This document shows positions 9,224 through 30,957 of a DNA stretch of 64,000 nt, piece after piece. Both the position numbers and the translations under genes were made by a program. This stretch comes from an uncultured Bacteroidota bacterium (GTDB lineage: Bacteria; Bacteroidota; Bacteroidia; Bacteroidales; UBA12481), in the NCBI GenBank assembly GCA_903851365.1, contig CAINOB010000082.1, forward strand, positions 7,590 through 71,589, given 5' to 3'. Each line of letters starts with the position of its first letter. The first letter of the stretch is position 1. The notes under the pieces were generated by a model. That model was given only the letters and a program-made list of their open reading frames with translations. It was not told the origin of the DNA and made no database searches.

Positions 9224-12200
9224 ATGGATGAAAAGGATAAATCCAGAGAAGATCTGATCATTGAATTAGGCGAATTAAGGCTCGAACTCGATCAGGCTAA
9301 AAAATCCTTTAGCAATGATTTGTCCATTCGGAATGATCTCGATTTTAAACTAAAGGAACGGCTTAAGGAACTTCATTGCCACAACCGTATTTCACATTTT
9401 ATGGCCAATGATGATCTGTCTTTCAGTGATACCTTAAAACAGATTGTTGGCATAATTCCGGATGCATGGCAATTCCCGGAAGTTACATCTGCCTCCATTG
9501 ATATTAAAGGGTTGGTTTATAAAACCGAAAATTTCCGGATGACGAGCTGGTACCTGTTGAGAGATATTGTTACCTCAGGAAAAACTATAGGTCGGGTAAT
9601 AGTATGCTATAATGAGAATTGTGGCTTCGATCCTGCCAGTCCATTTTTGAAGGAGGAGGAAGATCTTATTTTCGCAATAGCGGAAAGATTGGGGAATTTT
9701 GTTCAGCGGAAGGAAAAGGAGCTGGCCCTGTACCAAAGTGAGGAAAAATACCGCGAACTGATCGAGAATATTCATGACGTTATTTATGAGATTGACCCTA
9801 AGGGTGTCATCAAATACATTAGCCCTTCAGTTGAGCGGATTGTTGGTTTTTCACCGAAGGAAGTAATCGGTAAAAATTTCACTGATTTTGTTGGAGAGGC
9901 AGGTAAGTTTCTGTCTGAAAGGCTTCTGCTTCTTAAAGATGTCCATGAAATTGAGAACGAATATAAGATCAGATCCAAAACCGGCGTAACATGCTGGGTA
10001 CGTTTGTCGACAAAGGCAAAATTTGACGGCAAAGATTTTATTGGTGGCACCGGAACCCTGATTGATATCACCGATAGAAAGCAGATTGACCTGGAACTTC
10101 AGAACAGTGAGTCGCTCTACCGTTCTATCCTCGATGCTTCGCCAGATTTAATTACGATTACCGATCTTGAGGGTAAAATTCTCCTTACTTCTCCCAGGGC
10201 TTTTGAACTGTTCGGGTATGACAATTCCTTCAATTTTGGAGGGCATAGCCTGCTGGAATATATTCATCCTGAGGATCATGTTAGAGCAATGCAGGGTATC
10301 ACAGATATGTTCCGGGGAAATTTTTTCGGCGCCACGGAATATAAGGGAATCCGTGCTGACGGATCAATTTTTGACATCGAGGTGAACGGTCAGTTTATTC
10401 GTGATGCCGAAGGTAACCCGGTGAGCATGATTTTTGTTACCCGCGATATTTCGGAGCGGAAGAAAACTGAAAGCATGCTTTTCCGAACTGAGGAGAGGTT
10501 CAGGAAACTGGTGGAAAATATCAATGATGCGATTTATGAAATCGACAATACCGGTACGGTTTTGTATGTAAGCCCCTCCATAGAAAGAATTGTGGGATAT
10601 ACCCCGGAAGACCTGATCGGGAAGAATTTCTTTGCATTCATGTATCCGGATGACCGGCCAATACTTACAGAGGCTTTGGCACATCTGGGCCAAAAAGATT
10701 TTTCATTCCTGGAATACCGTTATTATGCTAAAGATGGTTCCCTCCGTTGGGTACGCTCTTCAACTAAGCCTATTGTTCAGAATGGCAGTATGATTGGTGG
10801 CATCGGCTCATTGACAGATATTACCGACCGCAAGAAAGATGAGGAGGAACTTCTGAAACTCTCGCGAGCCGTTGAGCAAAGCCCAGTGAGTATTGTAATT
10901 ACCAATCTCGACGGAAACATCGAATATGCAAATCCCAAGGCTACCGAAACGACCGGTTATGAACTTCATGAGCTTCTGGGTAAGAATCCGAGGGTTCTGA
11001 AGTCGGGTGAAACGAATTCCATGGAATATGAAAAGCTGTGGAAAACCATAACCACCGGCGATAAATGGCACGGAATATTCCATAACAAAAGAAAAAACGG
11101 CGAGCTGTACTGGGAATCCTCAACCATTTCTCCTATCACTGACCTTAATGGCAAGATAACCCATTATCGTGCAGTTAAGGAGGATATCACCGAACGCATT
11201 AAGACACAGCAAATACTTATCAAAAGTGAGGCTACCCTGAACTATGCTCAGGAGATTGCAAAAATGGGAAGCTGGGAGCTTGACCTGAGTACCAATGAGG
11301 TAATCTGGTCAAAAAACCTTTTTCGATTGCTCGGACTGGAACCTGCTGAGAAAGTGCTCGACAACAATGCCTTCAATAAAATGGTACATCCGGATGATTA
11401 CCATTTAGTGGATGATCTGATGGAGGAAATGTCGAAGACACATCAGGCGGGTAGCATCGATCTGCGAATTGTCATGCCTGATGGCTCCTTTAAATGGATC
11501 CAGGATAACGTGGTTCCTGTTTATGACGGAGGCGAACTGATCTCTTTGAAAGGCGTGAATATTGATATAACAGAAAAGAAACTGGCTGAGGAGGAAATCA
11601 AGCAGCAAAACGCAAGATCAAATGCTATTTTTCAAGCACTGCCTGATTTGATCCTGATTTCAGACAAAGACGGTGTTTGCATCGAATATTATACCAATGA
11701 TCCTAAGCGAATTCCTGTACCAAGGGATCAGATTATCGGGATCCATGTTTCAAAAATCTATGAACCCAAAATTGCGGATCTTCACCTTCAGAAGATTAAA
11801 GAATGCATAGCCACTGAAAAAGTGGTCACTTATGAATATGATACCACCCGGAATTCCGAGGAATATCATTATGAAACAAGATTAGTGAGGATGGGGCCCG
11901 ACCGGGTTTTAGCTTTTATCCGGGATATCACGGATAAAAAGCAAAAAGAAGAGGAAATTCAAAAACTCTCCATGGCAGTTGATCAAAGTCCTGTATCTAT
12001 CGTAATAACTGACCTTGATGCCAATATTGAGTACGTCAACCCAGCGTTTACCACCACTACCGGTTACACGATGGAGGAGGTGATTGGCAAGAATACGAAT
12101 ATTCTGAAATCAGGGCTCACTCCCCGTCAAACCTATGATGAACTCTGGGATACCCTCCGGCAGGGAAAGGGGTGGTCGGGCGAATGGATCAACAATCGGA

Positions 12201-14689
12201 AAAACGGGGAGACGTATTGGGAGAGTATCTCGATCAGCCCTATTCACGACGAGAAAGGGAATGTCATAAATTATCTCGCGGTGAAGCAGGATATTACGCA
12301 TAGAAAACAAATCGAACAGGAAATTCGCGACCTTAATGCCACCCTTGAACAAAGGATTGAAGAGAGGACTACCCAACTTTCGGTTACCAACGAAAACCTT
12401 TTACAGGAAATCGAGGAGCGGAGGCAAATTGAAGAGGCATTGCAGGAAAAGACTCAGGAGCTGGAGAATTTCTTCAATGTTGCTCTCGACCTGCTTTGCA
12501 TTGCCGATACCAGCGGATATTTTATCAGGGTTAATAAAGCCTGGGAAAATCTGCTCGGATATTCAACCGCTGAACTGGAGCATAGGCAGTTCCTTGAGTT
12601 TGTTCATCCTGACGATATTCAGGCTACTCTGGATGCAATGAATGAATTGAGCGAACAAAATCCTATCCTTAACTTTATTAACCGTTACCGGACTAAAGAG
12701 GGGGATTATCGCTTTATCGAATGGCACAGTGTTCCCGTTGGTTCTTTTATTTACGCTGCTGCCCGGGATATTACCGAGCGTATGATTGCTGAAACTTTGC
12801 TCGAACAAACAAGGCAGAATTATGCCACCTTCTTTAATACCATAGATGATTTTCTGTTTGTTCTCGATTCCAGGGGGATTATCATTGACGTCAATGAAAC
12901 CGTAATAGTCCGTCTCGGTTATGGACCAACCGGACTTACAGGGAAAAAATACGATCATCTCTATCCTAACGACCGTCTGGCTGAGGTAGTTGGCGAGATG
13001 AAAGGTATGCTGGCAGGAACAATTGAATTGTCTTCTGTACCCATCCTCACTAAGAACGGTGATCAGATTCCTGTTGAAACTAGAGTGAAGCGGGGTCATT
13101 GGAATGGACAGGAAGTATATTTTATTGTTAGCAAGGATATCTCCAAAATTAAATTGTCGGAGCAGAAATTCTCGACAGCCTTCCAGTCTAACTCAGCCAT
13201 GATGGCGATCTCCAATTTTGAAAACGGAGAATATCTTGATATTAATAATGCTTTCCTCGAGGTGATGGGATATACCCGTCAGGAGATAATCGGCAATACA
13301 AACCTGGGTCTTCAGCTTTTTGTTGATCTGAATTTGAGAAAGAGAATTTTGGACACTCTTGATGCCGCTATTCCGGTTAGAAAGTGGGAGATAAAAATTC
13401 GGACAAAAGATGGAGTGGAGAAAACTGGATTATTGTCGGCAGATTCAATCTTTATCGGGGATATCCGTTGCCTGCTTACCGTAAATATCGATATCTCGGA
13501 CCGGATTAAGGCTGAGGAGGACCTGAGGCAGGCCCGGCTTGCGGCAGAACAGGCCAATCTGGCAAAAAGTGAATTTCTATCGCGAATGAGCCTTGAGCTG
13601 AGAACGCCGATGAATTCTATTCTGGGGTTCGCTCAGCTGCTTGAAATGGGAGAACTCAATGCGGGGCAAAAGAAGGGAGTTACCCATATTATGAGGAGTG
13701 GGAAACACCTTCTCGACCTGATAAATGAGGTCCTTGATATCTCACGCATCGAAGCCGGCCGGCTCTCTTTATCACTTGAACCGGTAGATGTTGACGGTCT
13801 GATTGGTGAAATGCTTGATTATATCAAGCCGCAGGCATTCGACCGTAACATTAAAATGAAAATCATCTCTTCGCCGGAGAGTAAGCTGTTTGTCAAATCG
13901 GATCGCCAGCGATTGAAACAGGTACTGCTGAATTTACTGAGCAATGCCGTAAAATACAACAGGGAAGGTGGTTGGATCCATGTTGAAACAGAACTCACGG
14001 ATGCGGGTTATGCTGGAAAAGAAAATCTCCGAATTTCTGTAAGCGACAGCGGACTCGGAATATCCCCTGCCGACCTGCCCAAACTTTTTACTCCCTTTGA
14101 ACGTATTGGAGCCGAGAAAACTGAAACCGAAGGTACTGGTCTTGGCCTTTCGGTAGTGAAGAAGCTGATGGAAGCTATGGGTGGTTTTATGGGTGTGAGC
14201 AGCGTAGTGGGCGAGGGCTCCACTTTCTGGATCGAACTGCCAGTCATTGAAAGCCAGATCGAAACAGCAATCAATGGTGGCGACTTAATCAATATTAAAC
14301 CCGATATTCCTGCAAATGCGGGAACAATTTTATACATCGAGGATAATAATTCCAATATTGAGTTGGTTGAGCAGTTGCTTTCAGTCCATCGGCCCGGTAT
14401 AAAACTGATTGCAGATATTCATGGCAGACAGGCTGTCGCGCTCGCCCGGCAGCACAAGCCCGATATTATTTTGCTCGATCTCAACCTTCCGGATATTCAT
14501 GGGAGTGAAGTGCTCCGGCGCCTTCTGGCGGATGAAAAGGTTAAAAGCATACCCGTGGTAATTATCAGTGCTGATGCTACACCGAAGCAGTACCTGAAAT
14601 TAATAAGGGAGGGCGCCAGGAAATATCTGACCAAACCTCTTGAAATAGCGGAATTATTGAAAGTTATTGACGAGACTTTCGGGTGTTAA
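9224..14689 (+). CDS. hybrid sensor histidine kinase: N-terminal sensor module, ~10 PAS/PAC domains, HisKA-like, HATPase_c and a C-terminal receiver
   Basis: Ten repeats end in DIT(D/E)RK-like PAC motifs. N, G1, F and G2 boxes are present (LLSNAVKYN, DSGLGI, FTPFERIG, GTGLGLS). The REC domain has ED...D...S...K. The H-box reads FLSRMSLELRTPM, with Leu where the phospho-acceptor His is expected. Confidence 0.9.
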   Translation: MDEKDKSREDLIIELGELRLELDQAKKSFSNDLSIRNDLDFKLKERLKELHCHNRISHFMANDDLSFSDTLKQIVGIIPDAWQFPEVTSASIDIKGLVYKTENFRMTSWYLLRDIVTSGKTIGRVIVCYNENCGFDPASPFLKEEEDLIFAIAERLGNFVQRKEKELALYQSEEKYRELIENIHDVIYEIDPKGVIKYISPSVERIVGFSPKEVIGKNFTDFVGEAGKFLSERLLLLKDVHEIENEYKIRSKTGVTCWVRLSTKAKFDGKDFIGGTGTLIDITDRKQIDLELQNSESLYRSILDASPDLITITDLEGKILLTSPRAFELFGYDNSFNFGGHSLLEYIHPEDHVRAMQGITDMFRGNFFGATEYKGIRADGSIFDIEVNGQFIRDAEGNPVSMIFVTRDISERKKTESMLFRTEERFRKLVENINDAIYEIDNTGTVLYVSPSIERIVGYTPEDLIGKNFFAFMYPDDRPILTEALAHLGQKDFSFLEYRYYAKDGSLRWVRSSTKPIVQNGSMIGGIGSLTDITDRKKDEEELLKLSRAVEQSPVSIVITNLDGNIEYANPKATETTGYELHELLGKNPRVLKSGETNSMEYEKLWKTITTGDKWHGIFHNKRKNGELYWESSTISPITDLNGKITHYRAVKEDITERIKTQQILIKSEATLNYAQEIAKMGSWELDLSTNEVIWSKNLFRLLGLEPAEKVLDNNAFNKMVHPDDYHLVDDLMEEMSKTHQAGSIDLRIVMPDGSFKWIQDNVVPVYDGGELISLKGVNIDITEKKLAEEEIKQQNARSNAIFQALPDLILISDKDGVCIEYYTNDPKRIPVPRDQIIGIHVSKIYEPKIADLHLQKIKECIATEKVVTYEYDTTRNSEEYHYETRLVRMGPDRVLAFIRDITDKKQKEEEIQKLSMAVDQSPVSIVITDLDANIEYVNPAFTTTTGYTMEEVIGKNTNILKSGLTPRQTYDELWDTLRQGKGWSGEWINNRKNGETYWESISISPIHDEKGNVINYLAVKQDITHRKQIEQEIRDLNATLEQRIEERTTQLSVTNENLLQEIEERRQIEEALQEKTQELENFFNVALDLLCIADTSGYFIRVNKAWENLLGYSTAELEHRQFLEFVHPDDIQATLDAMNELSEQNPILNFINRYRTKEGDYRFIEWHSVPVGSFIYAAARDITERMIAETLLEQTRQNYATFFNTIDDFLFVLDSRGIIIDVNETVIVRLGYGPTGLTGKKYDHLYPNDRLAEVVGEMKGMLAGTIELSSVPILTKNGDQIPVETRVKRGHWNGQEVYFIVSKDISKIKLSEQKFSTAFQSNSAMMAISNFENGEYLDINNAFLEVMGYTRQEIIGNTNLGLQLFVDLNLRKRILDTLDAAIPVRKWEIKIRTKDGVEKTGLLSADSIFIGDIRCLLTVNIDISDRIKAEEDLRQARLAAEQANLAKSEFLSRMSLELRTPMNSILGFAQLLEMGELNAGQKKGVTHIMRSGKHLLDLINEVLDISRIEAGRLSLSLEPVDVDGLIGEMLDYIKPQAFDRNIKMKIISSPESKLFVKSDRQRLKQVLLNLLSNAVKYNREGGWIHVETELTDAGYAGKENLRISVSDSGLGISPADLPKLFTPFERIGAEKTETEGTGLGLSVVKKLMEAMGGFMGVSSVVGEGSTFWIELPVIESQIETAINGGDLINIKPDIPANAGTILYIEDNNSNIELVEQLLSVHRPGIKLIADIHGRQAVALARQHKPDIILLDLNLPDIHGSEVLRRLLADEKVKSIPVVIISADATPKQYLKLIREGARKYLTKPLEIAELLKVIDETFGC

Positions 14690-14731: not shown

Positions 14732-15952
14732 ATGATCGATATCGATTTAAAACAATCCAATATCCTCATTGTGGATGATCAGGTTGCTAATATTGATGTC
14801 CTGGAAACTTTCCTCTTGATGGAAGGGTATTCAAACGTCCGTTCAACAAAGGATCCCAGGGAAGTTGTTAGGCTTTTTGCTGAATTTAATCCCGACCTGA
14901 TTCTGCTTGACCTGATGATGCCTTACCTTAATGGTTTTGAGGTGATGGAGCAGCTGCAGTCTTGCATACCTACAAATACCTATCTGCCTATTCTGGTGCT
15001 TACTGCCGATGCCACCAAAGAGGCTAAACAACGTGCCTTATCCAGTGGAGGATCAGATTTTTTAACCAAGCCCTTCGACCTGATCGAGGTTGGCCTGCGG
15101 ATTAAAAACCTTTTGTATGCAAGGTTTCTTCACCGGCAGCTACGCGACCAGAATCAAATTCTGGAGGATAAAGTCAGGGAGCGTACTTTCGAACTGGAGA
15201 TGAATAATATTGATTTGAAGAAAGCAAAGGAAAAGGCCGAGGCAAGCGACAGGCTGAAATCTTCATTTCTTAACAATATCTCGCACGAAATTCGTACTCC
15301 TCTTAATGGTATTCTGGGTTTTGGCAATCTCCTGGCAGACCCGGAAACGCTGCCTGAAGAAAAGGGCACCTATTTAAAAATCATGGATCAAAGCAGTGCC
15401 AGACTATTGCAGACAGTCAGTAATTTTGTTGATATTTCCCTGATTTCTTCTGGCAACCTGGAGGTGAATAAGAGCGATTTCTGGCTGAAAATTGTTGTTA
15501 ATGAAATAATTGGGAAATATAGGCCTCTCTGTGAAGCCAAGAAGCTGGGCTTTTCCATTGAGATGGACAATGTCGAATCCGATACTGTGGTCAATGCCGA
15601 CAAGGACCTGCTTTATAAAATCATTAGCCACCTGATTGATAATGCCATAAAATTTACCAAGCAGGGATCGGTAACGGTTGGATTCAGGATCAGTGACCAT
15701 GAACTTCATTGCCGTGTTAAGGATACCGGAATCGGAATTTCGGAGGAGAGTCAAACGATCGTCTTTAAGGATTTTATGCAGGAAGATGGTTCCAATACAA
15801 GAGCTTTTGAAGGTACAGGACTCGGCCTGTCGATTGCGAAAGGTATTCTGTTACAACTTGGCGGAAGGATCTATCTTGAATCGGAAAAAGGAAAGGGTTC
15901 AACATTTTTCTTCTCTTTCCCGGCTACTTTCAATACATCACCCACCAATTAA
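14732..15952 (+). CDS. response-regulator receiver fused to a histidine kinase (REC-HisKA-HATPase_c)
   Basis: REC motifs (VDD, LLDLMMP, LTADA, TKPFD), intact H-box FLNNISHEIRTPLNGILGF and a HATPase_c domain (DNAIKFT, DTGIGI, GTGLGLS). Confidence 0.9.
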   Translation: MIDIDLKQSNILIVDDQVANIDVLETFLLMEGYSNVRSTKDPREVVRLFAEFNPDLILLDLMMPYLNGFEVMEQLQSCIPTNTYLPILVLTADATKEAKQRALSSGGSDFLTKPFDLIEVGLRIKNLLYARFLHRQLRDQNQILEDKVRERTFELEMNNIDLKKAKEKAEASDRLKSSFLNNISHEIRTPLNGILGFGNLLADPETLPEEKGTYLKIMDQSSARLLQTVSNFVDISLISSGNLEVNKSDFWLKIVVNEIIGKYRPLCEAKKLGFSIEMDNVESDTVVNADKDLLYKIISHLIDNAIKFTKQGSVTVGFRISDHELHCRVKDTGIGISEESQTIVFKDFMQEDGSNTRAFEGTGLGLSIAKGILLQLGGRIYLESEKGKGSTFFFSFPATFNTSPTN

Positions 15953-15990: not shown

Positions 15991-16007
15991 GTACCCAGAG
16001 CCGGGGT
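15991..16007. repeat. att repeat, tRNA-distal copy (GTACCCAGAGCCGGGGT)
   Basis: Identical to 33185-33201. Confidence 0.85.
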
Positions 16008-16124
16008 ACCGTAACTATTATACAATATTTAACGTAAACATCACCATTGTTACATCTTTAGCCTTTATTCATTATTGTTTTTGAGAGGTTCGAGGTTATA
16101 AAAAACATGCAAAAGTTAACTGTT

Positions 16125-16148
16125 GACCGCACCTATGACCGCACCTAT
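16125..16148. repeat. subterminal tandem 12-mer GACCGCACCTAT x2
   Basis: Perfect tandem repeat. A related tandem, GACCGCACCTGT-CACCGCACCCAT, lies at 33107-33130 in the same orientation. Confidence 0.8.
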
Positions 16149-16156
16149 TCATATTA

Positions 16157-17464
16157 ATGTTAAATAGTAATACCATGCCAGGCTTAAAACCACAGTTCAA
16201 ACTTAAAGTTGCTAACAAGGAAGGCTTATCAATGATCTACCTTCGGGTTTATTACGAAGGGAAGCGATTGACCTATTACCTTCCTCTTTCCATTGACCCG
16301 AATCACTGGATTAAAGAGGAGCAACGCCCATTACTGTACAAAAAGGAATTTAAAACACCACCGCAGGATGGTACGATAAGGCAATATCAGGATATCAAAG
16401 ATCAATTAGACAGATATGGGACAGAAACGACAAGAATTTATGGCAATTTCCGCTACAACGGTCAAATTCCATCACCAAAACAGATGAAGGAGGAATTGGA
16501 CAAGGTATTTCGTAAACAACCTGACGAGGCTAAAATCCTTCTTTTCGGAGCCTTCATTGACGATTTCATCGCAAGGTCTAACAAGAAATCTAATACAATG
16601 AGGAATTATCACACTACCAAGAGGCATTTTGAAGCCTTTGAGAAAAAAACCGGCAAAAAGTATCGTCTGACCGAGATGGATCTGAATTTTTATGATGCGT
16701 TTGTCCGGTATTTCATGGAAAAACCTTCAAGCACAAATACTATCGGCACAAATATCAAGAATATCAAGGTCTTCCTGGCTGATGCTGATGATCGTGGTTA
16801 TGTGGTCAATCAGGATTTCCGCAAGAAACATTTTAAAACGGTTGAGGAAGATGCTGACACCATCTATCTCAACGAGGCGGAGATTGATGCCATCGCAAAC
16901 CTGAAACTAAAGCAAGATGGCAAATTGGATCGTGTCAGGGATTGGTTTGTCGTAGGATGCCTTACCGGATTGCGTTATTCAGACTACCATCAATTAAGAA
17001 AGGAAAACATTGAATCAGTTGATAACCGTTATATGTTAACCCTTCGTATGATCAAAACTGGCTTACCAATTTCTGTTCCTGTGAATCCGCAGGTATTGAA
17101 CATTCTTAATAAATATGTTTGGGATATGCCGAAGGTCCTGTCGAATCAGAAGACCAATGAATATTTAAAAGAGATAGCAGCAGCAGCAAAATTAAATAGT
17201 AAAGAACTGATTCATAGGACGAATGGCAATTTAAGACATGAAGAAACCTTGTTCAAGTGGCAACTGGTGTCAACTCATACCGCTCGCAGAAGTTTTGCCA
17301 CTAATGCTTATTATGCCGGAATCCCTACAATTAAAATAATGCTGATTACCGGTCATAAGACAGAGCGGTCATTTCTGAAATATATTCGCATAAAAACGAA
17401 GGAGAATGCGTTAGACCTGATTGACCATCCGTTTTTTACGCGAGAACTAAAACAGTCAGTGTAA
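16157..17464 (+). CDS. site-specific tyrosine recombinase/integrase (Bacteroidota type with an N-terminal arm-binding domain)
   Basis: Catalytic signature GLRYSD, HTARRSFAT and GHKTERSFLKY (R...HxxR...H...Y). Lies adjacent to the att repeat. Confidence 0.9.
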   Translation: MLNSNTMPGLKPQFKLKVANKEGLSMIYLRVYYEGKRLTYYLPLSIDPNHWIKEEQRPLLYKKEFKTPPQDGTIRQYQDIKDQLDRYGTETTRIYGNFRYNGQIPSPKQMKEELDKVFRKQPDEAKILLFGAFIDDFIARSNKKSNTMRNYHTTKRHFEAFEKKTGKKYRLTEMDLNFYDAFVRYFMEKPSSTNTIGTNIKNIKVFLADADDRGYVVNQDFRKKHFKTVEEDADTIYLNEAEIDAIANLKLKQDGKLDRVRDWFVVGCLTGLRYSDYHQLRKENIESVDNRYMLTLRMIKTGLPISVPVNPQVLNILNKYVWDMPKVLSNQKTNEYLKEIAAAAKLNSKELIHRTNGNLRHEETLFKWQLVSTHTARRSFATNAYYAGIPTIKIMLITGHKTERSFLKYIRIKTKENALDLIDHPFFTRELKQSV

Positions 17465-17557
17465 TCAATGATGATCTGTGGTTTTGTTCCTTTGTGGTAC
17501 GTGGATTACGAAAAAAACGGTTGGTAATTTGCGAAGAATGTTATTCGTAGATAATGA

Positions 17558-18259
17558 TTAACTCTTTGCAGGCGTCTGAGTTGTTTGAGGAGTTTGAAGG
17601 TTATGAGGGTTTTCCCCCTTTATGGAATCTTTAACTATCTCAAACAATAAGGTTATCATAACACCCAAAACAACCAGGGCAAAACCTTTCCAAAATTCCT
17701 TTTTCCAAAACCTCTTTACTGAATTTTTATAGTTATTCAGTTCCTCCTCACAACCGTATATTTCATCGGAAATGTCTTTGAATGTACGTAGTTTTTCAAT
17801 ATACTCATTGAAAATTGGACTGAGATCAATTCCTGCATCCTTCTGACCCCGTAAATCCGCCATCTTAGTTACGAGTTTTCTAAGGGCACTCTTCTTCTGC
17901 GTATACTCAGGTATTACTGTATGGCAAACATCTGGTGGGAAGTTTTGTAGAAAATTCTCCAATTCATCTTTGGCAATTAAAACCTCACAATCATAGGTGT
18001 CAAAACCAGCGCGGTAAAAATGCCCCAAGGCCTTTTCAATATTGATTTTGAAGTAATTATCCTTATCTGCAGGGTTCGGATCAATTTTATTCCGGAAAAG
18101 GCTCATCACATGGTCTAAGGCATCCCTTTGTTCCTTTAGTAACTGAATGTTTACTTTGGTTTTGGGATCCAGACTTTCAACAAATAGTATGGCTCGTTTT
18201 AATTGATAGTACTCATGTATTAGAGCCTTAAGTGACGTAAGTTCTTCAGCATTAAACAT
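17558..18259 (-). CDS. hypothetical alpha-helical protein with a single C-terminal transmembrane helix
   Basis: 233-aa ORF. The hydrophobic segment GFALVVLGVMITLLFEIV lies near the C-terminus. No recognisable family. Confidence 0.5.
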   Translation of the reverse strand: MFNAEELTSLKALIHEYYQLKRAILFVESLDPKTKVNIQLLKEQRDALDHVMSLFRNKIDPNPADKDNYFKINIEKALGHFYRAGFDTYDCEVLIAKDELENFLQNFPPDVCHTVIPEYTQKKSALRKLVTKMADLRGQKDAGIDLSPIFNEYIEKLRTFKDISDEIYGCEEELNNYKNSVKRFWKKEFWKGFALVVLGVMITLLFEIVKDSIKGENPHNLQTPQTTQTPAKS

Positions 18260-18284
18260 GGGATATTGGGCTTAGGGACAAGAA

Positions 18285-18557
18285 TTAAGGCATACGTAAT
18301 TTTGCCATTTTCTTCTTGTAGTCGGCGTCCAATTCAAAGGTATCGAAGATATGCCCTCTTTTCAACGCTACATTACCCCGGATAACCATTTGGATAATAC
18401 CCCAAATCTTCATAACAGATGAAGTCGTGAGCGGTACATCTGAAAAACTGCCAAAAGGCATGCGATCAAGTTCTTCGATGGACGAAACGCCGGTCTGCTT
18501 GCAAATAATTTCATTGGCCTTGGGGGACAAGGTCAACAGCTTACCATTTTCCTTCAT
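18285..18557 (-). CDS. hypothetical small protein (90 aa from the ATG at 18557)
   Basis: ORF lies 25 nt upstream of the 233-aa ORF on the same strand. The TTG-extended track start was trimmed to the first ATG. Confidence 0.4.
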   Translation of the reverse strand: MKENGKLLTLSPKANEIICKQTGVSSIEELDRMPFGSFSDVPLTTSSVMKIWGIIQMVIRGNVALKRGHIFDTFELDADYKKKMAKLRMP

Positions 18558-18912
18558 GTTTACTGGTTTTGGGGTCTTATTTTTGAAATAACGCGCCAAA
18601 GTATACTTTATTAAATTTCCAAACAAATTTTTACTAAAGTATTTGAGCAATGTTTCCCTTTGAGGTTTAGCAGCTTAAATGAAATCGTCATGCTAAATTA
18701 AAACAACTCTGGGAAAGAATGAAATTAAAGTTATCAACAAGTGTATCAAAGAATTAACCCGTTGGTTGTAAAATGGATACCGTAACATGAACATTTTAAA
18801 ATAGATACCATAAATTCATTGATACATAAGGGTTTAGAATCCAAAAGTACGAGTTGGGCCTTGTCCAATTTATGACGCTATTAAAATAAACTCTTCCTCA
18901 ATAACCATAATA

Positions 18913-21900
18913 CTACCCCACCATCGGCCACTCCCTATACTGCCCCTCTGCCTGTTCAATAATCTCAACCAGAATTGCATTTAACTCTGTAATATCCACT
19001 TTTCCCCGGAGTTCTCTTTTAACAGCCAGTCGGATCGCTGCCCTGGCGTTCTCTTTCTTGTACCAGTCGATCTGGAGGTTTTTTCGAACTGCCTCCGTCA
19101 CGTTACGGACAATGTCTGCAATCAATCCGATATCCTGGATTGCACCTTTGTGATGGGCCAGTATATCGTAAAAGGCCAGTTCCTCTTCGCTTAAACCGAG
19201 TTCTTTCTTGCGGTGATCTTCTTCTTTGAGTTCTTTCGTCCTTTCTAATAATTCCAGTACAGTTGTATATGAGTCGAATGCATTCTTGTGGTATAATTCG
19301 ATAATTTTCTCCACCTGTTCCTTCAGCGAGGTATACTTAATGATGTTCTTCGACATCCGGTACTTGATTTCATTGTTCAGGATCTGCCTGAGCAATTCAA
19401 CTTTGATGGCAAGACCAGATTTCTTATCCTTTGCCCCAATCAGGAAATCATCATTGAGGATGGAAATATCCGGTTTTTCAACACCGGCCATGGCGTAGAT
19501 ATCGACAATCTCATCGGACTCAATGCTCCTCCTGACAAGATCCTTAATTCCCTCACCGGCCATGCGGGATGGACCCGGTGGATGTTTTAATTTCCGCACA
19601 CATACCCCAACGTGCTGAACGAAGATGATGTCGAGACTAATGTTATTTATTAAGGGATGTGAACTAACCATAGTGGTCAGCGCCGAAACCTTTTTCTCTA
19701 TCAGGAGAAAGTCCTCCGAAACCTGATCTTCCTTTACAATATGGTTTACTGCCCTGCTGACAAGCAATTGTTTATCTCCAGTAGACAAGGCTCTCCACCT
19801 CGAATAATCAAAACCATCTGGCCAAAAGGTATTGGCTAATCCCAATTGCTCCACTAATTCTGAGAATGCAGCATCCACATCAATTGTCACATCTCCCCGA
19901 CCTCCACCTTTTGTATATTTCTTGGTGGCATCCTTCAGCCGGTCCCCAATCCCAATGTAGTCAACTATGACTCCACCCGGTTTATCTCTGAATACCCGGT
20001 TAACCCTTGCTATGGACTGCATCAAGTTATGACCGTGCATAATTTTATCAATATACATGGCATGCACTGCCGGTGCATCAAATCCCGTCAACCACATATC
20101 CCGGACAATAACCAGTTTCAGTGGATCATCAGGATCTTTAAACCTGGATTTGACCGCCTCCTGACTTTCTGTGGTTCGTAAATGTTTGTTCCATGCTGGT
20201 GGATCGGTCGAGATGTTTCCGGTCATTACAACTGCAACCTCAGGGCAACCGGGGAGGGCGGTTATGGCATCATACATCCTTACGCAATTCCTCCTGCTCA
20301 TACACACGATCATTCCTTTCCCCGGAAGAATCGCATTTCTTTTCGTGAAATGTTCCAGAATGTCTGTTGCTACCTTGTTTACCCGCTCATAAGCTCCAGC
20401 GGCATCATCAATAGCGGCCCATTTCAGGTGGTTGGATTCATCGATCGGCAATCCTCTGACAATCTCTTCTGCCTCTTCATCGATCCCCTCATTGGATAAA
20501 TGCAGTTGAGCCAACCGTGGTTCATAATAAATGGGGACGGTAGCCTTGTCCTCGACAGCCTGTTTGATGTCATATACATGGATCGTTTCCCCGAACACTT
20601 CCCAGGTATCGGCATCTTTTAGATCCACTGGAGTGCCCGTAAATCCAATGAAGGATGCATTTGGGAGTGCGGTCCTGAGAAAAGATGCGAACCCATCCAA
20701 CAGGCCGTATTGGGTTCTGTGGGCCTCGTCAGCTATGACAATAATATTCTCCCGTGAAGATAATACAGGGTGCGTTATCTCCCGGTCACCATTTTCATCA
20801 GCTCTCAGCCGGAATTTCTCAATAGTTGAAAAGATAACCCCTCCACCTTCAGATGAAAGAAGCTCTCTTAGTTCAATAGTAGTCTTAGCATGCGAAATTG
20901 ATCCAGTGAGATCCTTGGCATAGATGAAGTTGTCGTATAACTGGCGATCAAGGTCGTTCCGGTCAACCTGCACAAGGATGGTAGGATTTCTGAGTTCAGG
21001 TAGTTGCCGAAGTATCCCAGTGAAGATGGCCATCGAAATACTTTTACCTGCTCCTTGGGTGTGCCAGATGACCCCGATACGCCCATCTCCTTTGGGTTTG
21101 ATTGCATCAAGAGTATGTTCTACTGCCGCCAGCACACCGAAAAATTGATGGTATTTTGCTCCTTTCTTGATCAGCGTTCCACTATGGTCTTCATGGAAAA
21201 TAAAATACCGGATATACGTTAGCAACCTTGGTTTCGGCAATAGTCCGAGTATCAGGGAATGCAAGGCATGACCATCTTCAACCGTCGTTTCGCCATCGAT
21301 CGACTTCCATGGTGCATACCACTCCCGACCGGATGAAAACATCCCCGACAAGGTTTCTGTTCCGTCAGAAATGACGGTCAGAGCATTATATTCAAAAAGT
21401 ATAGGGATATCCTCCCTGTAATGCTGTATTTGGTTGAAGGCATTATCGACCGTGGCTGTGGCATCAAATGGGTTCTTAAACTCAAATACAATGAGTGGGA
21501 TACCATTGATGAAGATGATCAGATCGGGCCTCCTTGCATTCTTTCCCTGTATGGAGAACTGATTGACACAAAGAAAATCGTTCTGCTCAGGGTTGGAATA
21601 ATTGATTGGGTAGATATGCTCTAAATGCAGATTGCCTGCCTTATCGGTCCATGAGTAGTCAATACCCGTGGACAATTTTAAGTGAAAATCCCGGTTCCGA
21701 TAATCCATATCACTTCCTTGATTGGACAGGAGTAGGAGCATGACCTCCATCACTTCCTTTTCGGGTAACTGAGGATAAGCCTCTGACAAATATGCATGAA
21801 ACCGATCCTCAAGAACAACACTTTTTAATGGTCTGGTGATGTCAGATCCATGGATATATGAGTAACCTGCTTGATTCAACCACTCAATGGCAGCCAATTC

Positions 21901-21927
21901 TACATCGGATTCGGTTAGTTTGTTCAC
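18913..21927 (-). CDS. hsdR: type I restriction enzyme R subunit
   Basis: The N-terminus ESDVELAAIEWL is typical of HsdR. Walker A HTQGAGKS, DEAH box VIADEAHRTQ and helicase C motifs are present. GTG start at 21927 in a GTGA overlap with the upstream ORF. Confidence 0.92.
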   Translation of the reverse strand: MNKLTESDVELAAIEWLNQAGYSYIHGSDITRPLKSVVLEDRFHAYLSEAYPQLPEKEVMEVMLLLLSNQGSDMDYRNRDFHLKLSTGIDYSWTDKAGNLHLEHIYPINYSNPEQNDFLCVNQFSIQGKNARRPDLIIFINGIPLIVFEFKNPFDATATVDNAFNQIQHYREDIPILFEYNALTVISDGTETLSGMFSSGREWYAPWKSIDGETTVEDGHALHSLILGLLPKPRLLTYIRYFIFHEDHSGTLIKKGAKYHQFFGVLAAVEHTLDAIKPKGDGRIGVIWHTQGAGKSISMAIFTGILRQLPELRNPTILVQVDRNDLDRQLYDNFIYAKDLTGSISHAKTTIELRELLSSEGGGVIFSTIEKFRLRADENGDREITHPVLSSRENIIVIADEAHRTQYGLLDGFASFLRTALPNASFIGFTGTPVDLKDADTWEVFGETIHVYDIKQAVEDKATVPIYYEPRLAQLHLSNEGIDEEAEEIVRGLPIDESNHLKWAAIDDAAGAYERVNKVATDILEHFTKRNAILPGKGMIVCMSRRNCVRMYDAITALPGCPEVAVVMTGNISTDPPAWNKHLRTTESQEAVKSRFKDPDDPLKLVIVRDMWLTGFDAPAVHAMYIDKIMHGHNLMQSIARVNRVFRDKPGGVIVDYIGIGDRLKDATKKYTKGGGRGDVTIDVDAAFSELVEQLGLANTFWPDGFDYSRWRALSTGDKQLLVSRAVNHIVKEDQVSEDFLLIEKKVSALTTMVSSHPLINNISLDIIFVQHVGVCVRKLKHPPGPSRMAGEGIKDLVRRSIESDEIVDIYAMAGVEKPDISILNDDFLIGAKDKKSGLAIKVELLRQILNNEIKYRMSKNIIKYTSLKEQVEKIIELYHKNAFDSYTTVLELLERTKELKEEDHRKKELGLSEEELAFYDILAHHKGAIQDIGLIADIVRNVTEAVRKNLQIDWYKKENARAAIRLAVKRELRGKVDITELNAILVEIIEQAEGQYREWPMVG

Positions 21928-22397
21928 GCCTTTTCTCTCCCAATTAAAATGAGGTGGAATCCATCAGATACCTTTTGTTTTGACACCAGCTTTTGATGCA
22001 TCGGCTTCTTTTTATATTGAACCAAGAGATTTACCAGGCGATTATCTGAACAAACGGCAGCGAGAAAGTCAAAATCATTCGGATTAATAGTACTTGCGAT
22101 ATCCCTTATTTTTGGCCTGAGGCTGGTCCTTTTAAAAATATCGCAACTGCCGGCAATTTTTTTTAATTTTTTAAAGGGGATATTGAACCTATGGATTATA
22201 GCATCCACTGATACTTCTTGTATTGATTCTCTATCGTTTTGCTTACGTTTTGAATACCGGGGTAATCTCTGCAATATCTCTTGCCTGTGTTGGGAAGTGC
22301 TGCCAATGGCAACCTTTTTTTTTGATTTTCGATTGCTCGCCAGGGCTACCTTTTGCATAGCCCCTTGTGAGACCTTATTTTGTCCTTGGTATACCAT
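21924..22397 (-). CDS. hypothetical basic protein embedded between hsdS and hsdR
   Basis: 157-aa ORF with a Lys/Arg-rich N-terminal half. Its stop overlaps the hsdR start codon (GTGA). Confidence 0.5.
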   Translation of the reverse strand: MVYQGQNKVSQGAMQKVALASNRKSKKKVAIGSTSQHRQEILQRLPRYSKRKQNDRESIQEVSVDAIIHRFNIPFKKLKKIAGSCDIFKRTSLRPKIRDIASTINPNDFDFLAAVCSDNRLVNLLVQYKKKPMHQKLVSKQKVSDGFHLILIGREKA

Positions 22398-22407
22398 GGA
22401 GATCTCT

Positions 22408-23652
22408 TTATAGCGGATGCTGCTCTACATCCTTGACCCGAATTTCGCCACTAATAAGTTTGGGGAGAAGGTAGTCACGTGTTTCCATTAATATTTTGTT
22501 TTCTCTATTATTATTCCAGATCTGATCCATTAGTGCCCCAATTTTGTCAGCGATTATCTTTTGATCCTGCTGTTGCGGCAAAACAATCTTAAATTCCCTA
22601 AAATCCTTTAATACAATACGTTGAATTACAGCACCCGTTACAATTGACTTTAGCCTTTCGTGAACAGAATCTGACTTTAATTGAAAATTCAATAAGTGGG
22701 GATTAAGTCTTCCATTCGGTCTTATTATCGCAATTGAAGATAATAGAACCAGATTCAGATCTTGTTCAACCACGAAAGAATATTTTAAGAAACTACCATC
22801 CTTTGCAATCAACAAATCATTTTTCAATGGTCTACATCCTTGATCTACTAAAGTTCGATAATCAGTATTGCTGATTCTTCTGCATGATTCTTCATTTATA
22901 TTCCAATCAGTCATGTCTTTAACGGATGCCATAGGCATTCCAATGTCCTGCGACTTCGGACTTAGATGTGCCCCATCAGTAATCTTGGATGAGACCTCTG
23001 ATAGTCTGGAAATCCCCCAATCCTTCGGTATCGGCCCCAATTCGCTATCAACAAATTCACCATCCCGGAACGGCCCAAAATCCACAAACCACTCCTTATA
23101 AATAGCCATCGCCATATCTTCAAGGGTCTTGTTCATCTCCAGGTTGAGTTCGATCTTGTCATCAAGGGTAGAGAGGATGGAAGTGATAATATGTTGTTCT
23201 TGGATAGGCGGTAAATCAATCTGAATTTCATCAAATGTGGATCTTGTAATTGTATCAAAGACACTACCATGAGAATGATTTTTGAGTTGATGGACTTTGT
23301 ATTTTAACAAATAATATAAATAATCATTACTTGCAAGCGTGTGTTTCGCCACTAACCCGTAACATGACTGATTGAAAGCCATTTCACCACTTAGCACCCC
23401 GATCTCCCCAACTGTTCCTCTGGCTGATACAATAACACTACCACAAGGCAAAATCCTTGTTGAAGAATGCTTCAAACCTTCCGCTGTGATACACTTTTCA
23501 GTTTTTATGATGTGTTTGGCATCCCCATGAAAATCAACAACACTAATCCATGGAATTGCACCATCCCAATATCTTTTGACGGTTGTCTTCGGTGTTCCAC
23601 CTCCGAATAAGTCAACGACTGCACTAATTGTGGTCTTATCCCAGTTTGTCAT
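22408..23652 (-). CDS. hsdS: type I restriction-modification specificity subunit
   Basis: 414 aa with two target-recognition halves separated and followed by conserved helical repeats (LPPIQEQHIITSILSTLDDKIELN, LPQQQDQKIIADKIGALMDQIWNN). Confidence 0.9.
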   Translation of the reverse strand: MTNWDKTTISAVVDLFGGGTPKTTVKRYWDGAIPWISVVDFHGDAKHIIKTEKCITAEGLKHSSTRILPCGSVIVSARGTVGEIGVLSGEMAFNQSCYGLVAKHTLASNDYLYYLLKYKVHQLKNHSHGSVFDTITRSTFDEIQIDLPPIQEQHIITSILSTLDDKIELNLEMNKTLEDMAMAIYKEWFVDFGPFRDGEFVDSELGPIPKDWGISRLSEVSSKITDGAHLSPKSQDIGMPMASVKDMTDWNINEESCRRISNTDYRTLVDQGCRPLKNDLLIAKDGSFLKYSFVVEQDLNLVLLSSIAIIRPNGRLNPHLLNFQLKSDSVHERLKSIVTGAVIQRIVLKDFREFKIVLPQQQDQKIIADKIGALMDQIWNNNRENKILMETRDYLLPKLISGEIRVKDVEQHPL

Positions 23653-23655
23653 TAT

Positions 23656-24456
23656 TTATAAGACAATTGTTGTTGAAGAATACTTTTTATCAGTTAGGCC
23701 AGATTTCACAATCCGAATTGTTGACGTACCAAAATATTTTTTGAGAAATGTGATAAAATGGTCCGCAGTAAACGATCCCAATCGATGATCCAGTACAATA
23801 GTTGTATTTTGGAATAACTCTAAAGGATCTATCTTCAAATCAATAAATGATTTGCGAGTCATAACATCACTTTTTTTAACAATAATAATTCTCCTCTCGT
23901 TTTCATACGCAAATGCATTGCGTTTGAATAAAAGTAGTTTTACTTGTTCTTCAATAATTTCGTTGTTCAGAATGGAATCTTTAAATCCGGGTAGGAGGCC
24001 TAACTCCTTCTTATGGGCATCGATGTTCTTCTGAAATTCATATTTAACTTTACCGATATAGATGGTTTCAATCGCTCTATTATTCAACAATTGGTCTTGT
24101 AGGTATTTAATTAATGCCTCGGATTGAACGCTTATTCTTACTCCATCATTATTCCTAATGTATGTGTACCAATACGCCTCACTGGAATATGTCCCCGTGA
24201 AACATAAACAATAAGCCCTGTCCCTCAAAGGCAACGTGTAATTTTTCTTACCAATTTTAAACTCAGCATTAAGAAAGTGTTTTTCAAAAGGATCATCCCA
24301 CTCAGTCGGGTTTGAAAATCGAATAGTCTTGCCCGACAGGATTTTGAGTAGTGATTCAAGGCTAATAAACCTATAAAGGTTAGTGGTTTCACTAACAAAT
24401 GTGGAATGATCAAATATTGATTTACCGATTGAGGTATAGATCAGATTCTTGACCAT
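23656..24456 (-). CDS. DUF2971-like protein embedded between hsdM and hsdS
   Basis: N-terminal LYRFISLESLLKILSGKTIRFSNPTEWDDPFE resembles the DUF2971 signature (lYrY...l...l.fs.p..fNDPfE). Gaps of 2-3 nt to both neighbours. Confidence 0.55.
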   Translation of the reverse strand: MVKNLIYTSIGKSIFDHSTFVSETTNLYRFISLESLLKILSGKTIRFSNPTEWDDPFEKHFLNAEFKIGKKNYTLPLRDRAYCLCFTGTYSSEAYWYTYIRNNDGVRISVQSEALIKYLQDQLLNNRAIETIYIGKVKYEFQKNIDAHKKELGLLPGFKDSILNNEIIEEQVKLLLFKRNAFAYENERRIIIVKKSDVMTRKSFIDLKIDPLELFQNTTIVLDHRLGSFTADHFITFLKKYFGTSTIRIVKSGLTDKKYSSTTIVL

Positions 24457-24458
24457 AC

Positions 24459-26048
24459 TTAATTAATAAAATTCTTAAAATTCTTTAATACAACCTCTTC
24501 GATTCTATGTGATTCGACAAATTGAGCAGAAAGTTTTTTACTTAGACTAATTATCTTTTCTTCAAAAGGAACTCCATCATCCACTGACTCTTCAGTTCCC
24601 ACATAAATACCAGGTGTTAATTTGTAATCTTGAGCCTTGACCATATCTAATGTCGCCACTCTACATAACCCTGCGATGTCCTCATAGTTTCCAGTCTTGG
24701 TCCGCCATTCGTGATAAACAGTTGAAATCTTTTGCACATCCTCATCACTAAAGACCTTCAGTTTCCTCGTAGCCATGGAACCCATTTTGGATGCATCAAT
24801 GAAAAGGATTTCTCCCTTCCTTTCCCGGAATCCATCTCTACCCTCACGGTTTTTGCTGAGGAAGAAAAGACAGGCCGGGATACCAGTAGTCATGAAAAGT
24901 TTTTCTGGGAGCCTGACAATGCAGTCGATAACCCCATTATCAACGAGGTATTGCCGCACAATCTTTTCACCGACTGTGTTAGTAGTCATCGCACCATTAG
25001 CCATTACGAATCCGGCCGTTCCCAAATCATTCAAGTGGGAAAAGAAGGTCTGCATCCACATAAAATTTGCATTCCCATCAGTGGTGTATTCAGTTCTTTT
25101 GCCAAATAGCCTTGGGTCATCATCAGCCAGATCCTCTGGATGCCATTGGGATACATTAAAAGGCGGATTGGCGATCACAAAGTCTGCCTTCAGGTCATGG
25201 AACTTATCGTCCAATAGCGAATCACCCACTTTGAGGTCAAAAGGTAGGTCCCTGAGTAATAAATTCATCTTGCACAACCTCAGAGTCCCTTCATAGCGAT
25301 CCTGACCATAAATCGAGATATCGCCTTTATTACCGCCGTGCTCCTGGATGAACTTCATCGATTGGACAAACATTCCGCCACTTCCACAGGCGGGGTCGAA
25401 GATCCGGCCATGAAATGGTTGTAACATCTCCACCAGGAGGCGAACGATAGATCCCGGTGTAAAGAATTGTCCGGCACCAGAACCTTCAGCCATTGCAAAC
25501 CGGCCGATATAGTATTCGTATATTCTGCCCAGGATATCTGATTCCGGGTTCTCCTTTTCAGAAAACTTCTTTTGTGAGAACAGGTTGATGATCCCGCCCG
25601 TTTGCCGTGCTGACAATTGGCTACGAACAAAGATCGGAGGTAGTATCCCTCTCAGGTTGGGATCAGTGTCAGCCAGGATATCATCGATGATGGTAAATGC
25701 CTTGTCAATCTTAACCTTGATATCATCCTGCTCGGCATTCTCTTGTAAAAACGCCCAGGTGGCCTCTGTGGGTAATTTAAAAACGTTCTTTGCCTTGTAT
25801 TCATCTGGATCATCCAGAACGTAGTCGATCTCTTTAGGATCTGTTGTATAATAGTGCGATTCCGGTTGCTGGACCAGTGCTGCTAATTCCTCCCGTCTCA
25901 TATCATATCGCTCCGACAGATGTTTGAGGAATAGCAAAGAGAGGACAAAATCTTTGTACTGGTTCTCGGCAACTGCTCCACGTAGTTCATTGGCGGCGGT
26001 CCAGAGTTCACGCTCGAAGTCGATGTCAGCCTTAACTTGTTTTGCCAT
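24459..26048 (-). CDS. hsdM: type I restriction-modification N6-adenine DNA methyltransferase subunit
   Basis: HsdM N-terminal helix (LWTAANELRG), AdoMet motif DPACGSGGM and catalytic NPPF (VIANPPFN). Confidence 0.92.
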   Translation of the reverse strand: MAKQVKADIDFERELWTAANELRGAVAENQYKDFVLSLLFLKHLSERYDMRREELAALVQQPESHYYTTDPKEIDYVLDDPDEYKAKNVFKLPTEATWAFLQENAEQDDIKVKIDKAFTIIDDILADTDPNLRGILPPIFVRSQLSARQTGGIINLFSQKKFSEKENPESDILGRIYEYYIGRFAMAEGSGAGQFFTPGSIVRLLVEMLQPFHGRIFDPACGSGGMFVQSMKFIQEHGGNKGDISIYGQDRYEGTLRLCKMNLLLRDLPFDLKVGDSLLDDKFHDLKADFVIANPPFNVSQWHPEDLADDDPRLFGKRTEYTTDGNANFMWMQTFFSHLNDLGTAGFVMANGAMTTNTVGEKIVRQYLVDNGVIDCIVRLPEKLFMTTGIPACLFFLSKNREGRDGFRERKGEILFIDASKMGSMATRKLKVFSDEDVQKISTVYHEWRTKTGNYEDIAGLCRVATLDMVKAQDYKLTPGIYVGTEESVDDGVPFEEKIISLSKKLSAQFVESHRIEEVVLKNFKNFIN

Positions 26049-26331
26049 GTGGGGTTGGATGGTGAGAAGATTTATCTGCCCGAAGGTACGAGTTTTCGGG
26101 GAAAGGGGTAGGACAAACCACGAATTTAGCCTCCTTGAGGGGACGGTGAGGTTTTGTTCCGGTTCCGTTGCAACAGAAATATCAGGCTATCACTGATGCC
26201 AAGGAAGAATTTGGGGAGTCAGTTAGAGCCGGAATCTGTTTATCGAGTTCCAGAAATTCTTGTATCAGTTCAAGGTAGCATAAGTTTTTAATAATGAAGT
26301 ATTTGGGTAGTAGTTAAATTCTAATGTGAAA

Positions 26332-27237: not shown

Positions 27238-27314
27238 GATTGAAGATTTATTGCCCTTGGCACGGTTAGATTAAATTTGACACATTTATCATTTACAATA
27301 TAAAACACAACTCA

Positions 27315-27794
27315 TTAATGTATTTGTTCACCCCCCCGCTCTTGCCCTTCTTCTAATGTTTTATCCAAGTGATGATCTTTGTTGGTCCCTCCAACATAGG
27401 CTTCAGCGGTTTCATTGATTTCTTCTAAAAATGCACCGTACACTATTTTTGCTTTTCTGATCCTCATCATCATTAACCAAGCAGTATCTTTCGTCACTTC
27501 GATATCACGGGCAAATTGTCTTACGGAAATTCCTTTTTTTGCATCTAAAATTATGGAAATGGCTAAGAACCATTTTTGAATATCTAACTTGGAATTATGG
27601 AAAACGGTTCCAACTGTAACACTAAAAGAAGTATTACAATTATTACAATGGTATCTTAATTCCTTTGAGACTGGTGTTGTTTTGGTCGAATTACAATATG
27701 GGCATTGAGCAACATTATTCCATCTCACTTTTTCCAGATGTCTTATGCAACTTGAATGATCTGGGAACTGCTTGTATATTTGGACTAAACTCAT
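27315..27794 (-). CDS. IS1595-family transposase N-terminal region only (zinc ribbon + HTH); DDE domain absent
   Basis: FPDHSSCIRHLEKVRWNN.AQCPYCNS...YHCNNCNTSFSVTVGTVFHNSKLDIQKWF...ISVRQFARDIEVTKDTAW matches the IS1595/ISXO2-like N-terminus. The ORF stops shortly after EAYVGG, where the DDE domain should begin. Confidence 0.6.
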   Translation of the reverse strand: MSLVQIYKQFPDHSSCIRHLEKVRWNNVAQCPYCNSTKTTPVSKELRYHCNNCNTSFSVTVGTVFHNSKLDIQKWFLAISIILDAKKGISVRQFARDIEVTKDTAWLMMMRIRKAKIVYGAFLEEINETAEAYVGGTNKDHHLDKTLEEGQERGGEQIH

Positions 27795-27930
27795 TTTTGA
27801 ATTATTTCTCTACCATATAATAGGACAAATATATAACATTATAAAGGCTTTGTCAATGGAATTGCAAAAAAGTTATCAACAATTAACCTACCATATTCTA
27901 TGACAGTACTAAATTATAAAATTAATAGAA

Positions 27931-28490: not shown

Positions 28491-28518
28491 AATCGGTATG
28501 TGAATATTAAAGGGAAGA

Positions 28519-30943: not shown

Positions 30944-30957
30944 TGTGACTCTCGTCT

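Follow-up and report, generated by a model that had tools for sequence, protein, structure and literature searches.

A polymorphic leucine codon at the phospho-acceptor position of a multi-PAS hybrid histidine kinase from lake-dwelling Bacteroidota

Introduction

A stretch of 64,000 nucleotides from an uncultured Bacteroidota bacterium (GenBank assembly GCA_903851365.1, contig CAINOB010000082.1, positions 7,590 to 71,589), hereafter called the window, carries a gene for a hybrid histidine kinase with about ten PAS units. At codon 1457 of this gene, where the phospho-acceptor histidine of the H-box is expected, the window reads CTT (Leu). Comparison with homologues and with nearly identical sister alleles identifies His as the ancestral state and Leu as the derived one, and indicates that both alleles coexist within one Bacteroidota species. 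The reading that we favour, to which we assign a probability of about 0.72, is that the window holds a recent and still polymorphic knock-out-type allele of one clonal lineage rather than an evolved pseudokinase.

HisKA kinases autophosphorylate on the acceptor histidine and then pass the phosphoryl group to an aspartate residue of a receiver. Point mutation of this histidine is the textbook route to a dead histidine kinase.

Histidine in relatives and in sister alleles

There are 1690 homologues of the kinase with E <= 1e-50, and the best 120 of these were inspected. An H-box can be recognized in 118 of them, and the acceptor position is occupied by His in every one. The H-box context FLSRMSHELRTPM is identical in most of these 118 proteins, and the context FLSRMS-x-ELRTPM is common to most relatives. 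His is also present in 92 of the 92 HisKA segments that align to the query from 80 loci in species-representative genomes, as well as in the closest full-length orthologue (P0027, 1814 amino acids, 53% identity).

More informative still are two sequences that are almost the same as the window. The 90%-identity cluster of the window protein includes one other member, P0121, which is likewise 1821 amino acids long, is 99.9% identical, and differs only at P807S and L1457H. Its contig has the same upstream gene order as the window. The other sister allele comes from one of five metagenomic runs that were compared, namely X1, X2, X4 and X5 from study P1 (X1, X2 and X4 being lake-water metagenomes) and X3 from study P2 (a freshwater metagenome). 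A contig from run X5 (452 nucleotides, depth 7) matches positions 13149-13592 exactly and then continues with ATGAGCTG where the window has TTGAGCTG. Codon 1457 in X5 is CAT (His), and its difference from the window is a single A/T transversion at position 13593, with T in the window and A in X5. An earlier note on this DNA, prepared from the letters alone, had remarked that CTT lies one base away from CAT, and run X5 supplies exactly this codon.

Because His is found in all relatives and also in the nearly identical P0121 and X5 sequences, Leu is a derived state produced by a very recent A-to-T transversion. The earlier note had itself named CAT or CAC in orthologues as the observation that would speak against its proposal, and this is what was found: the orthologues carry His, X5 reads CAT and the Leu residue is not conserved. 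Similarly, the proposals that the protein is a kinase that phosphorylates a partner in trans, or a pseudokinase scaffold or phosphatase, are unsupported as evolved functions because Leu is conserved in no relative. Such trans-phosphorylation, scaffold or phosphatase roles are nevertheless physically possible as side-effects of the mutant protein.

Short X3 contigs over 13544-13590, which include 'AGT CAT GAA TTT' and have 3-4 mismatches, were considered as a further His allele and were rejected as sequences of other family members or organisms. A scan of genome and metagenome contig collections with the H-box DNA in which this codon was left free (GAATTTCTATCGCGAATGAGCNNNGAGCTG...) gave no matches.

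The leucine codon in independent assemblies

Contigs assembled separately from runs X1, X2, X3 and X4 all carry CTT at codon 1457 with zero mismatches. Furthermore, the exact 1821-amino-acid protein with Leu is encoded on at least eight contigs of lake assemblies in ENA, some of which possibly share their samples with the runs, and two ENA scaffolds match the window at 100% identity, L001 over 11.5 kb and L002 over 9.6 kb. One could suppose that the true codon is CAT and that Leu is an artefact of sequencing, assembly or binning in one assembly, given that the two codons are one base apart and that the depth of the runs is low (3-10x). However, the occurrence of CTT in contigs of four runs from two studies excludes a one-off sequencing or assembly error. 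Moreover, the run that reads CAT departs from the window at further, linked sites (R649L and S340G) and has an empty island site, all described below, which points to two real haplotypes and not to random error. We therefore consider an artefact to be extremely improbable. The earlier note had offered a sequencing change or a very recent mutation as one of its options; the former part fails against the contigs of X1-X4 and ENA, and the latter is borne out by the His residues of P0121 and X5.

An otherwise canonical kinase in a conserved two-gene module

The open reading frame (ORF) for the hybrid kinase extends from 9224 to 14689 on the plus strand, and its 1821 codons are uninterrupted by any frameshift or stop codon over 5.4 kb. 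The predicted protein is composed of an N-terminal region, the PAS array, HisKA, HATPase_c and a C-terminal receiver. There are at least eight PAS-family Pfam matches upstream of HisKA, and 10 PAS-end motifs of the form 'DIT/S-x-R/K-K' agree with the count of ten PAS units given in the earlier note. The HisKA domain scores 57.0 bits against PF00512, for which the gathering cut-off is 26.9, and the peptide around codon 1457 reads SEFLSRMS-L-ELRTPMNSILGF. In phmmer alignments to solved kinases, Leu1457 occupies the column that holds the phospho-acceptor His in 6qrj, 7z8n and 7p8e, wherein the H-box 'msLelrtp' is paired with 'lsHefrtp' or 'msHeirtp'. No alignment was found that offers another His at the acceptor position, and no alternative phospho-acceptor His is present in helix 1 of the DHp domain. 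The His residues of helix 2 (VTHIMRSGKH) were considered as substitute acceptors and were rejected from general knowledge of the fold.

All other catalytic features that were inspected are retained. The phosphatase-motif residues E1458 and T1461 are kept in HisKA, and the N (NavKYN), G1 (DsGlGi), F (FtpFe) and G2 (GtGLGL) boxes of the CA domain are conserved in comparison with the solved kinases. The receiver has the motifs expected for a hybrid kinase (EDN...ILLDLNLPD, which includes the acceptor Asp, followed by SAD and TKP). These matches uphold the descriptions in the earlier note of a Leu codon in the H-box, intact CA boxes and receiver, and an uninterrupted reading frame. Apart from the missing acceptor His, all sequence criteria place the protein among the canonical HisKA hybrid kinases. 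Its homologues are 'PAS domain S-box' hybrid kinases, mostly from Bacteroidota (Prolixibacteraceae, Lentimicrobium and Paludibacter) and Ignavibacteria, and nothing else sets it apart from the multi-PAS hybrid histidine kinases of Bacteroidota, which form a very large family. The type IX secretion sorting domains encoded elsewhere in the window and the type of the island integrase, both described below, likewise point to Bacteroidota.

The next gene, which starts 42 nucleotides after the stop codon of the hybrid kinase, encodes a kinase with a receiver, HisKA and HATPase_c (hereafter REC-HK). As the earlier note had observed, its own H-box (SHEIRTP) has an intact His. No terminator-like site was found in the 42-nucleotide spacer. 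Orthologues of REC-HK are located directly downstream of family members, on the same strand, in L003, L004, L005, L006 and L017. Full-length identities are 51.5% (L004), 55.7% (L005), 48.6% (L006) and 38% (L017), and the L003 orthologue is 67% identical over the 252 residues that precede the contig end. The spacers in these relatives are some 40-50 nucleotides long. This similarity of order and spacing identifies the two genes as a conserved module and lends weight to the suggestion of the earlier note that REC-HK is the functional partner. Given this conserved adjacency, phosphotransfer from the hybrid kinase to the receiver of REC-HK is a reasonable supposition. A sigma-70 promoter scan of the region was set aside because it is not meaningful for Bacteroidota promoters, and a search for RNA runs that cover the kinase region found none.

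In two relatives the module has an additional sensor. L003 (4025-15469) has two family kinases of 1814 and 1654 amino acids in tandem ahead of a REC-HK-REC protein, and L005 (1305-6883) has two multi-PAS hybrid kinases in tandem ahead of REC-HK. Such tandem arrangements suggest that REC-HK may collect input from more than one sensor of this type.

Haplotypes and a linked tRNA-Leu island

A genomic island of 17,194 bp (17.2 kb) begins close to the module, its left junction (16007) lying 55 nucleotides past the REC-HK stop codon. The island is bounded by perfect 17-nucleotide direct repeats, GTACCCAGAGCCGGGGT, at 15991-16007 and 33185-33201, which equal the 3' end of tRNA-Leu(CAA). Its GC content is 36-42%, compared with 44-49% in the flanks. 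The cargo includes a Bacteroidota-type tyrosine integrase (16157-17464), genes for DUF2971, P63C and IS1595-type zinc ribbon proteins, and a complete type I restriction-modification (R-M) system composed of hsdR, hsdS and hsdM. The left junction is read through in X1, X2 and X3, and the right junction in X1, X3 and X4. In X5, by contrast, the contig departs from the window at 16007 and continues with a 30-mer that matches 33202-33231 exactly, and from the other side position 33185 is preceded by the sequence that lies downstream of REC-HK. Thus, a related strain retains the empty site, as expected for an island that has integrated at a tRNA gene. In general, the element is like other tRNA-gene islands that carry a tyrosine integrase and defence genes, and nothing unusual was noted. 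For the kinase it matters only because it marks the lineage that carries Leu: among the five runs, the Leu allele is always found with the island and the His allele (X5) with the empty site.

Over the 7.3 kb of the two-gene module, X5 and the window differ at three single-nucleotide polymorphisms (SNPs), all of which are nonsynonymous: 11169 (R649L), 13593 (L1457H) and 15749 (S340G in REC-HK). When P807S of P0121 is included, there are four amino-acid polymorphisms among three module haplotypes, and none is synonymous. The closest orthologues have Leu at position 649, which makes X5 look ancestral here and Arg649 of the window probably derived. Similarly, the prevalence of Pro807 among homologues (60 of 76) marks Ser807 of P0121 as the derived residue. 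In the absence of recombination, these observations fit an order in which an X5-like haplotype (L649-P807-H1457, no island) acquired L649R, from which P0121 (with P807S) and the window (with H1457L and the island) were derived. His1457 and Pro807, both conserved, have thus been altered in different lineages. The four nonsynonymous polymorphisms hint at relaxed or unusual selection on the sensor, although the numbers are small.

Divergence is otherwise extremely low: in 20 kb of other, non-signalling genes (34000-53999) there is one listed SNP between X5 and the window. Comparison of the three SNPs of the 7.3-kb module with this single SNP gives a binomial P of ~0.06 by our own arithmetic and is biased, because 13593 was found by targeted inspection of contig ends whereas contig-end SNPs were not sought in the 20-kb control. 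It has therefore been set aside as evidence of selection. The sole listed SNP in that interval (34232 T>C) is within the first of three ORFs with type IX secretion system (T9SS) tails and shows how close the strains are.

Interpretation and alternatives

In the window lineage, one A-to-T change at 13593 turned the CAT codon of His1457 into CTT and so introduced Leu. The L1457 protein would be expected to fold, dimerize and bind ATP, but it could not autophosphorylate, and no phosphate would be delivered to its own receiver or to that of the downstream kinase. In HisKA kinases the conserved His not only donates the phosphoryl group but also takes part in catalysis of the phosphatase reaction (PMC5727384), and for this reason the phosphatase activity of the L1457 protein is probably reduced too. 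Consistent with this dual role, the H260A variant of HK853 has diminished phosphatase activity, and EnvZ H243A yields no phospho-OmpR (PMC5727384). The ten-PAS input would then be cut off from the output of the module, and the receiver of REC-HK would stay unphosphorylated unless it is fed by another kinase. It is plausible that the loss of one sensor among many paralogues is tolerated, as L003 and L005 carry two family members side by side, and possibly the loss was even beneficial and aided the clone. Given that Leu resides on the island-bearing haplotype, its high apparent frequency would be explained most simply by the spread of that one clone through hitch-hiking or drift.

Several considerations weigh against this interpretation. 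The samples that contain the Leu haplotype show no variation in it, and a second lineage, P0121, is altered at a conserved Pro of the same gene; both observations would be compatible with positive selection for altered signalling as well. The hybrid kinase shows no further decay, although the mutation is so young that little follows from this either way. Finally, the 'high frequency' of Leu and its 'complete linkage' with the island are provisional, because alleles were counted in the assembled contigs of five runs and of ENA assemblies, wherein minor variants are hidden.

Perhaps H1457L was instead adaptive at birth, such that a selected pseudokinase helped the island-bearing clone to spread in lakes. 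This might occur through dominant-negative or heterodimeric interactions with paralogues, through titration of receivers or action as a phosphate sink, or through a scaffold that locks REC-HK in one state. Heterodimers with paralogues are conceivable because the sequence of DHp helix 1, HELRTPMNSILGFAQLLE, is nearly invariant among family members, and laboratory evolution of ChrS offers a precedent in which the phenotype is stronger than that of a deletion and ChrS-HrrS heterodimers are formed (PMC9491836). The protein is otherwise intact in its CA boxes, receiver Asp and E/T phosphatase-motif residues, and the Leu haplotype is present in four of the five runs and in most ENA contigs without further variation. 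The denser SNPs of the module and the fact that all its differences (R649L, P807S, H1457L and S340G) are nonsynonymous might be added, but the enrichment is neither significant nor unbiased, and strains this closely related are expected to differ mainly by nonsynonymous SNPs in excess. In addition, the linked R-M island is an alternative driver of the success of the clone, and a residue other than His has become fixed in none of the relatives, near or distant, so that such alleles do not persist in the family. We consider this scenario unlikely. If true, a non-phosphorylatable sensor would rewire a conserved module of hybrid kinase and REC-HK.

We hold it to be slightly less likely again that the substitution is the first step of pseudogenization, in which a sensor made dispensable by many paralogues has lost its His neutrally and will decay. 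The tandem family members in genomes of the group (two in L003 and two in L005) and the changes at conserved residues in two independent lineages (H1457L and P807S) are compatible with this idea, but the 5.4-kb gene is free of stop codons and frameshifts. This possibility is also largely a sub-case of the recent knock-out that we favour, and the two are inseparable at this time depth.

There is next to no room for an established pseudo-histidine kinase comparable to DivL or PsmA, in which His was lost long ago and the core was repurposed as a sensor or scaffold for REC-HK. The architecture is DivL-like, with multiple PAS domains followed by DHp and CA, a partner kinase adjoins, and DivL (4q20) and RetS (6dk8) are among the structure matches. 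However, the conservation that defines this class fails. The Tyr of DivL is conserved across alphaproteobacterial homologues (PMC4211667) and PsmA is widely conserved (PMC12963549), whereas His is present in the 99.9% identical allele P0121, in X5, in P0027, and in every other homologue or aligned segment counted above.

Comparison with known systems

The window protein shares its domain order (PF00512, PF02518 and PF00072) and its downstream REC-HK partner with canonical multi-PAS HisKA hybrid kinases. The DHp, CA and receiver domains of these proteins, represented by the genome-locus relatives and the best structures (6qrj and 7z8n), are 45-61% identical to those of the window. The difference is that every relative has His where the window allele has Leu. 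EnvZ H243A and HK853 H260A likewise have an aliphatic side chain that cannot be phosphorylated at this position of an otherwise intact kinase, and by analogy the L1457 protein would work like an engineered H-to-A or H-to-V kinase-dead mutant. These two are laboratory constructs, whereas the window allele is a natural one that segregates in a lake population, has a fused receiver and is known from sequence.

DivL from Caulobacter and PsmA from Streptomyces, the latter a hybrid protein, are PAS-containing proteins that resemble histidine kinases and lack a phosphorylatable His, as the window allele does. DivL can still dimerize and bind response regulators, although it is active neither as a kinase nor as a phosphatase (PMC4211667). 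In both cases the substitution is conserved across a genus or class and the protein has a dedicated non-catalytic role, whereas in the window the substitution belongs to one haplotype of one species. Another parallel is ChrS_CA-fs from Corynebacterium glutamicum, in which a new mutation inactivates a working histidine kinase within a population, as in the window. This example shows that pseudokinase alleles can be selected and can act unlike a deletion (PMC9491836). It is nevertheless a CA-domain frameshift obtained under a defined laboratory selection, with a demonstrated phenotype and heterodimer partner, whereas the window allele is a missense change at the His itself.

Features of the region

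The coordinates of the features discussed above are collected in Table 1.

Table 1. Positions in the window of the kinase module, its polymorphic codons and the linked island
Feature	Coordinates	Strand	Basis or remark
Multi-PAS (~10 PAS units) hybrid histidine kinase gene, 1821 amino acids	9224..14689	+	ORF translation, Pfam, PAS-end motifs, homologues
Codon 649, hybrid kinase	11168..11170	+	CGT (Arg) in window, CTT (Leu) in X5; SNP at 11169
Codon 807, hybrid kinase	11642..11644	+	Pro in window, Ser in P0121; Pro in 60/76 aligned homologues
HisKA (DHp), residues 1447-1512	13562..13759	+	PF00512, profile 1-66/66
Codon 1457, phospho-acceptor position	13592..13594	+	CTT (Leu), in frame with ORF 9224..14689
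HATPase_c (CA), residues 1560-1674	13901..14245	+	PF02518, 102.3 bits, profile 2-109/111
C-terminal receiver, residues 1702-1815	14327..14668	+	PF00072, 74 bits, profile 1-110/111
REC-HisKA-HATPase_c kinase (REC-HK), 406 amino acids	14732..15952	+	Pfam, ORF translation; H-box SHEIRTP intact
Codon 340, REC-HK	15749..15751	+	AGT (Ser) in window, GGT (Gly) in X5; varies among orthologues
Left att-like 17-nucleotide direct repeat, displaced copy of tRNA-Leu 3' end	15991..16007	.	Repeat search, X5 junction
Genomic island, 17,194 bp	16008..33201	.	Low GC, integrase, repeats, empty site in X5
tRNA-Leu(CAA), integration target of the island	33185..33269	-	3' 17 nucleotides form the right att repeat (33185-33201)

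Just inside the ends of the island, a doubled GACCGCACCT forms an imperfect direct repeat at 16125-16148 and 33107-33130 (GACCGCACCTATGACCGCACCTAT and GACCGCACCTGTCACCGCACCCAT). These sites may be arm-type binding sites of the integrase. Island ORFs of 462, 306, 265, 233 and 121 amino acids (31264-32652 on the minus strand, 29167-30943 on the plus strand and 17558-18650 on the minus strand) have no Pfam match at E <= 0.001. Beside tRNA-Leu are three consecutive ORFs of 641, 707 and 745 amino acids (33355-40029, minus strand), each with a C-terminal Por_Secre_tail for type IX sorting and two with DUF3244, which resemble a gene cluster for proteins that are secreted or exposed on the surface.

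Upstream of the kinase, a 37-amino-acid ORF for the ribosomal protein Thx (PF17070) is located at 8949-9062 on the minus strand, as recognized from L001 (2726-2839). It is easily missed by length cut-offs and is situated between a cytidine/dCMP-deaminase-like gene (8483-8938) and the promoter region of the kinase.

Implications

By these comparisons, the window allele is classed as a naturally occurring phospho-acceptor mutant that stands outside the conserved class of pseudo-histidine kinases. The His of orthologues and sister alleles corrects the pseudokinase reading, and more generally the absence of a catalytic residue from a single assembly is no ground for inferring an evolved pseudokinase until its orthologues and sister alleles have been examined. 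In biological terms the finding is of little surprise, as acceptor-His knock-outs and conserved pseudo-histidine kinases are already known. The allele is nevertheless a clean natural example of micro-diversity within a species, wherein a large sensor with a knocked-out catalytic site occurs commonly in the population that was sampled, in linkage with an R-M island of recent acquisition. With codon 1457 and the island as linked markers, a read-level time series could tell tolerance, hitch-hiking and selection apart in freshwater Bacteroidota, and the pair formed by the multi-PAS hybrid kinase and REC-HK is a testable signalling unit in this poorly studied group.

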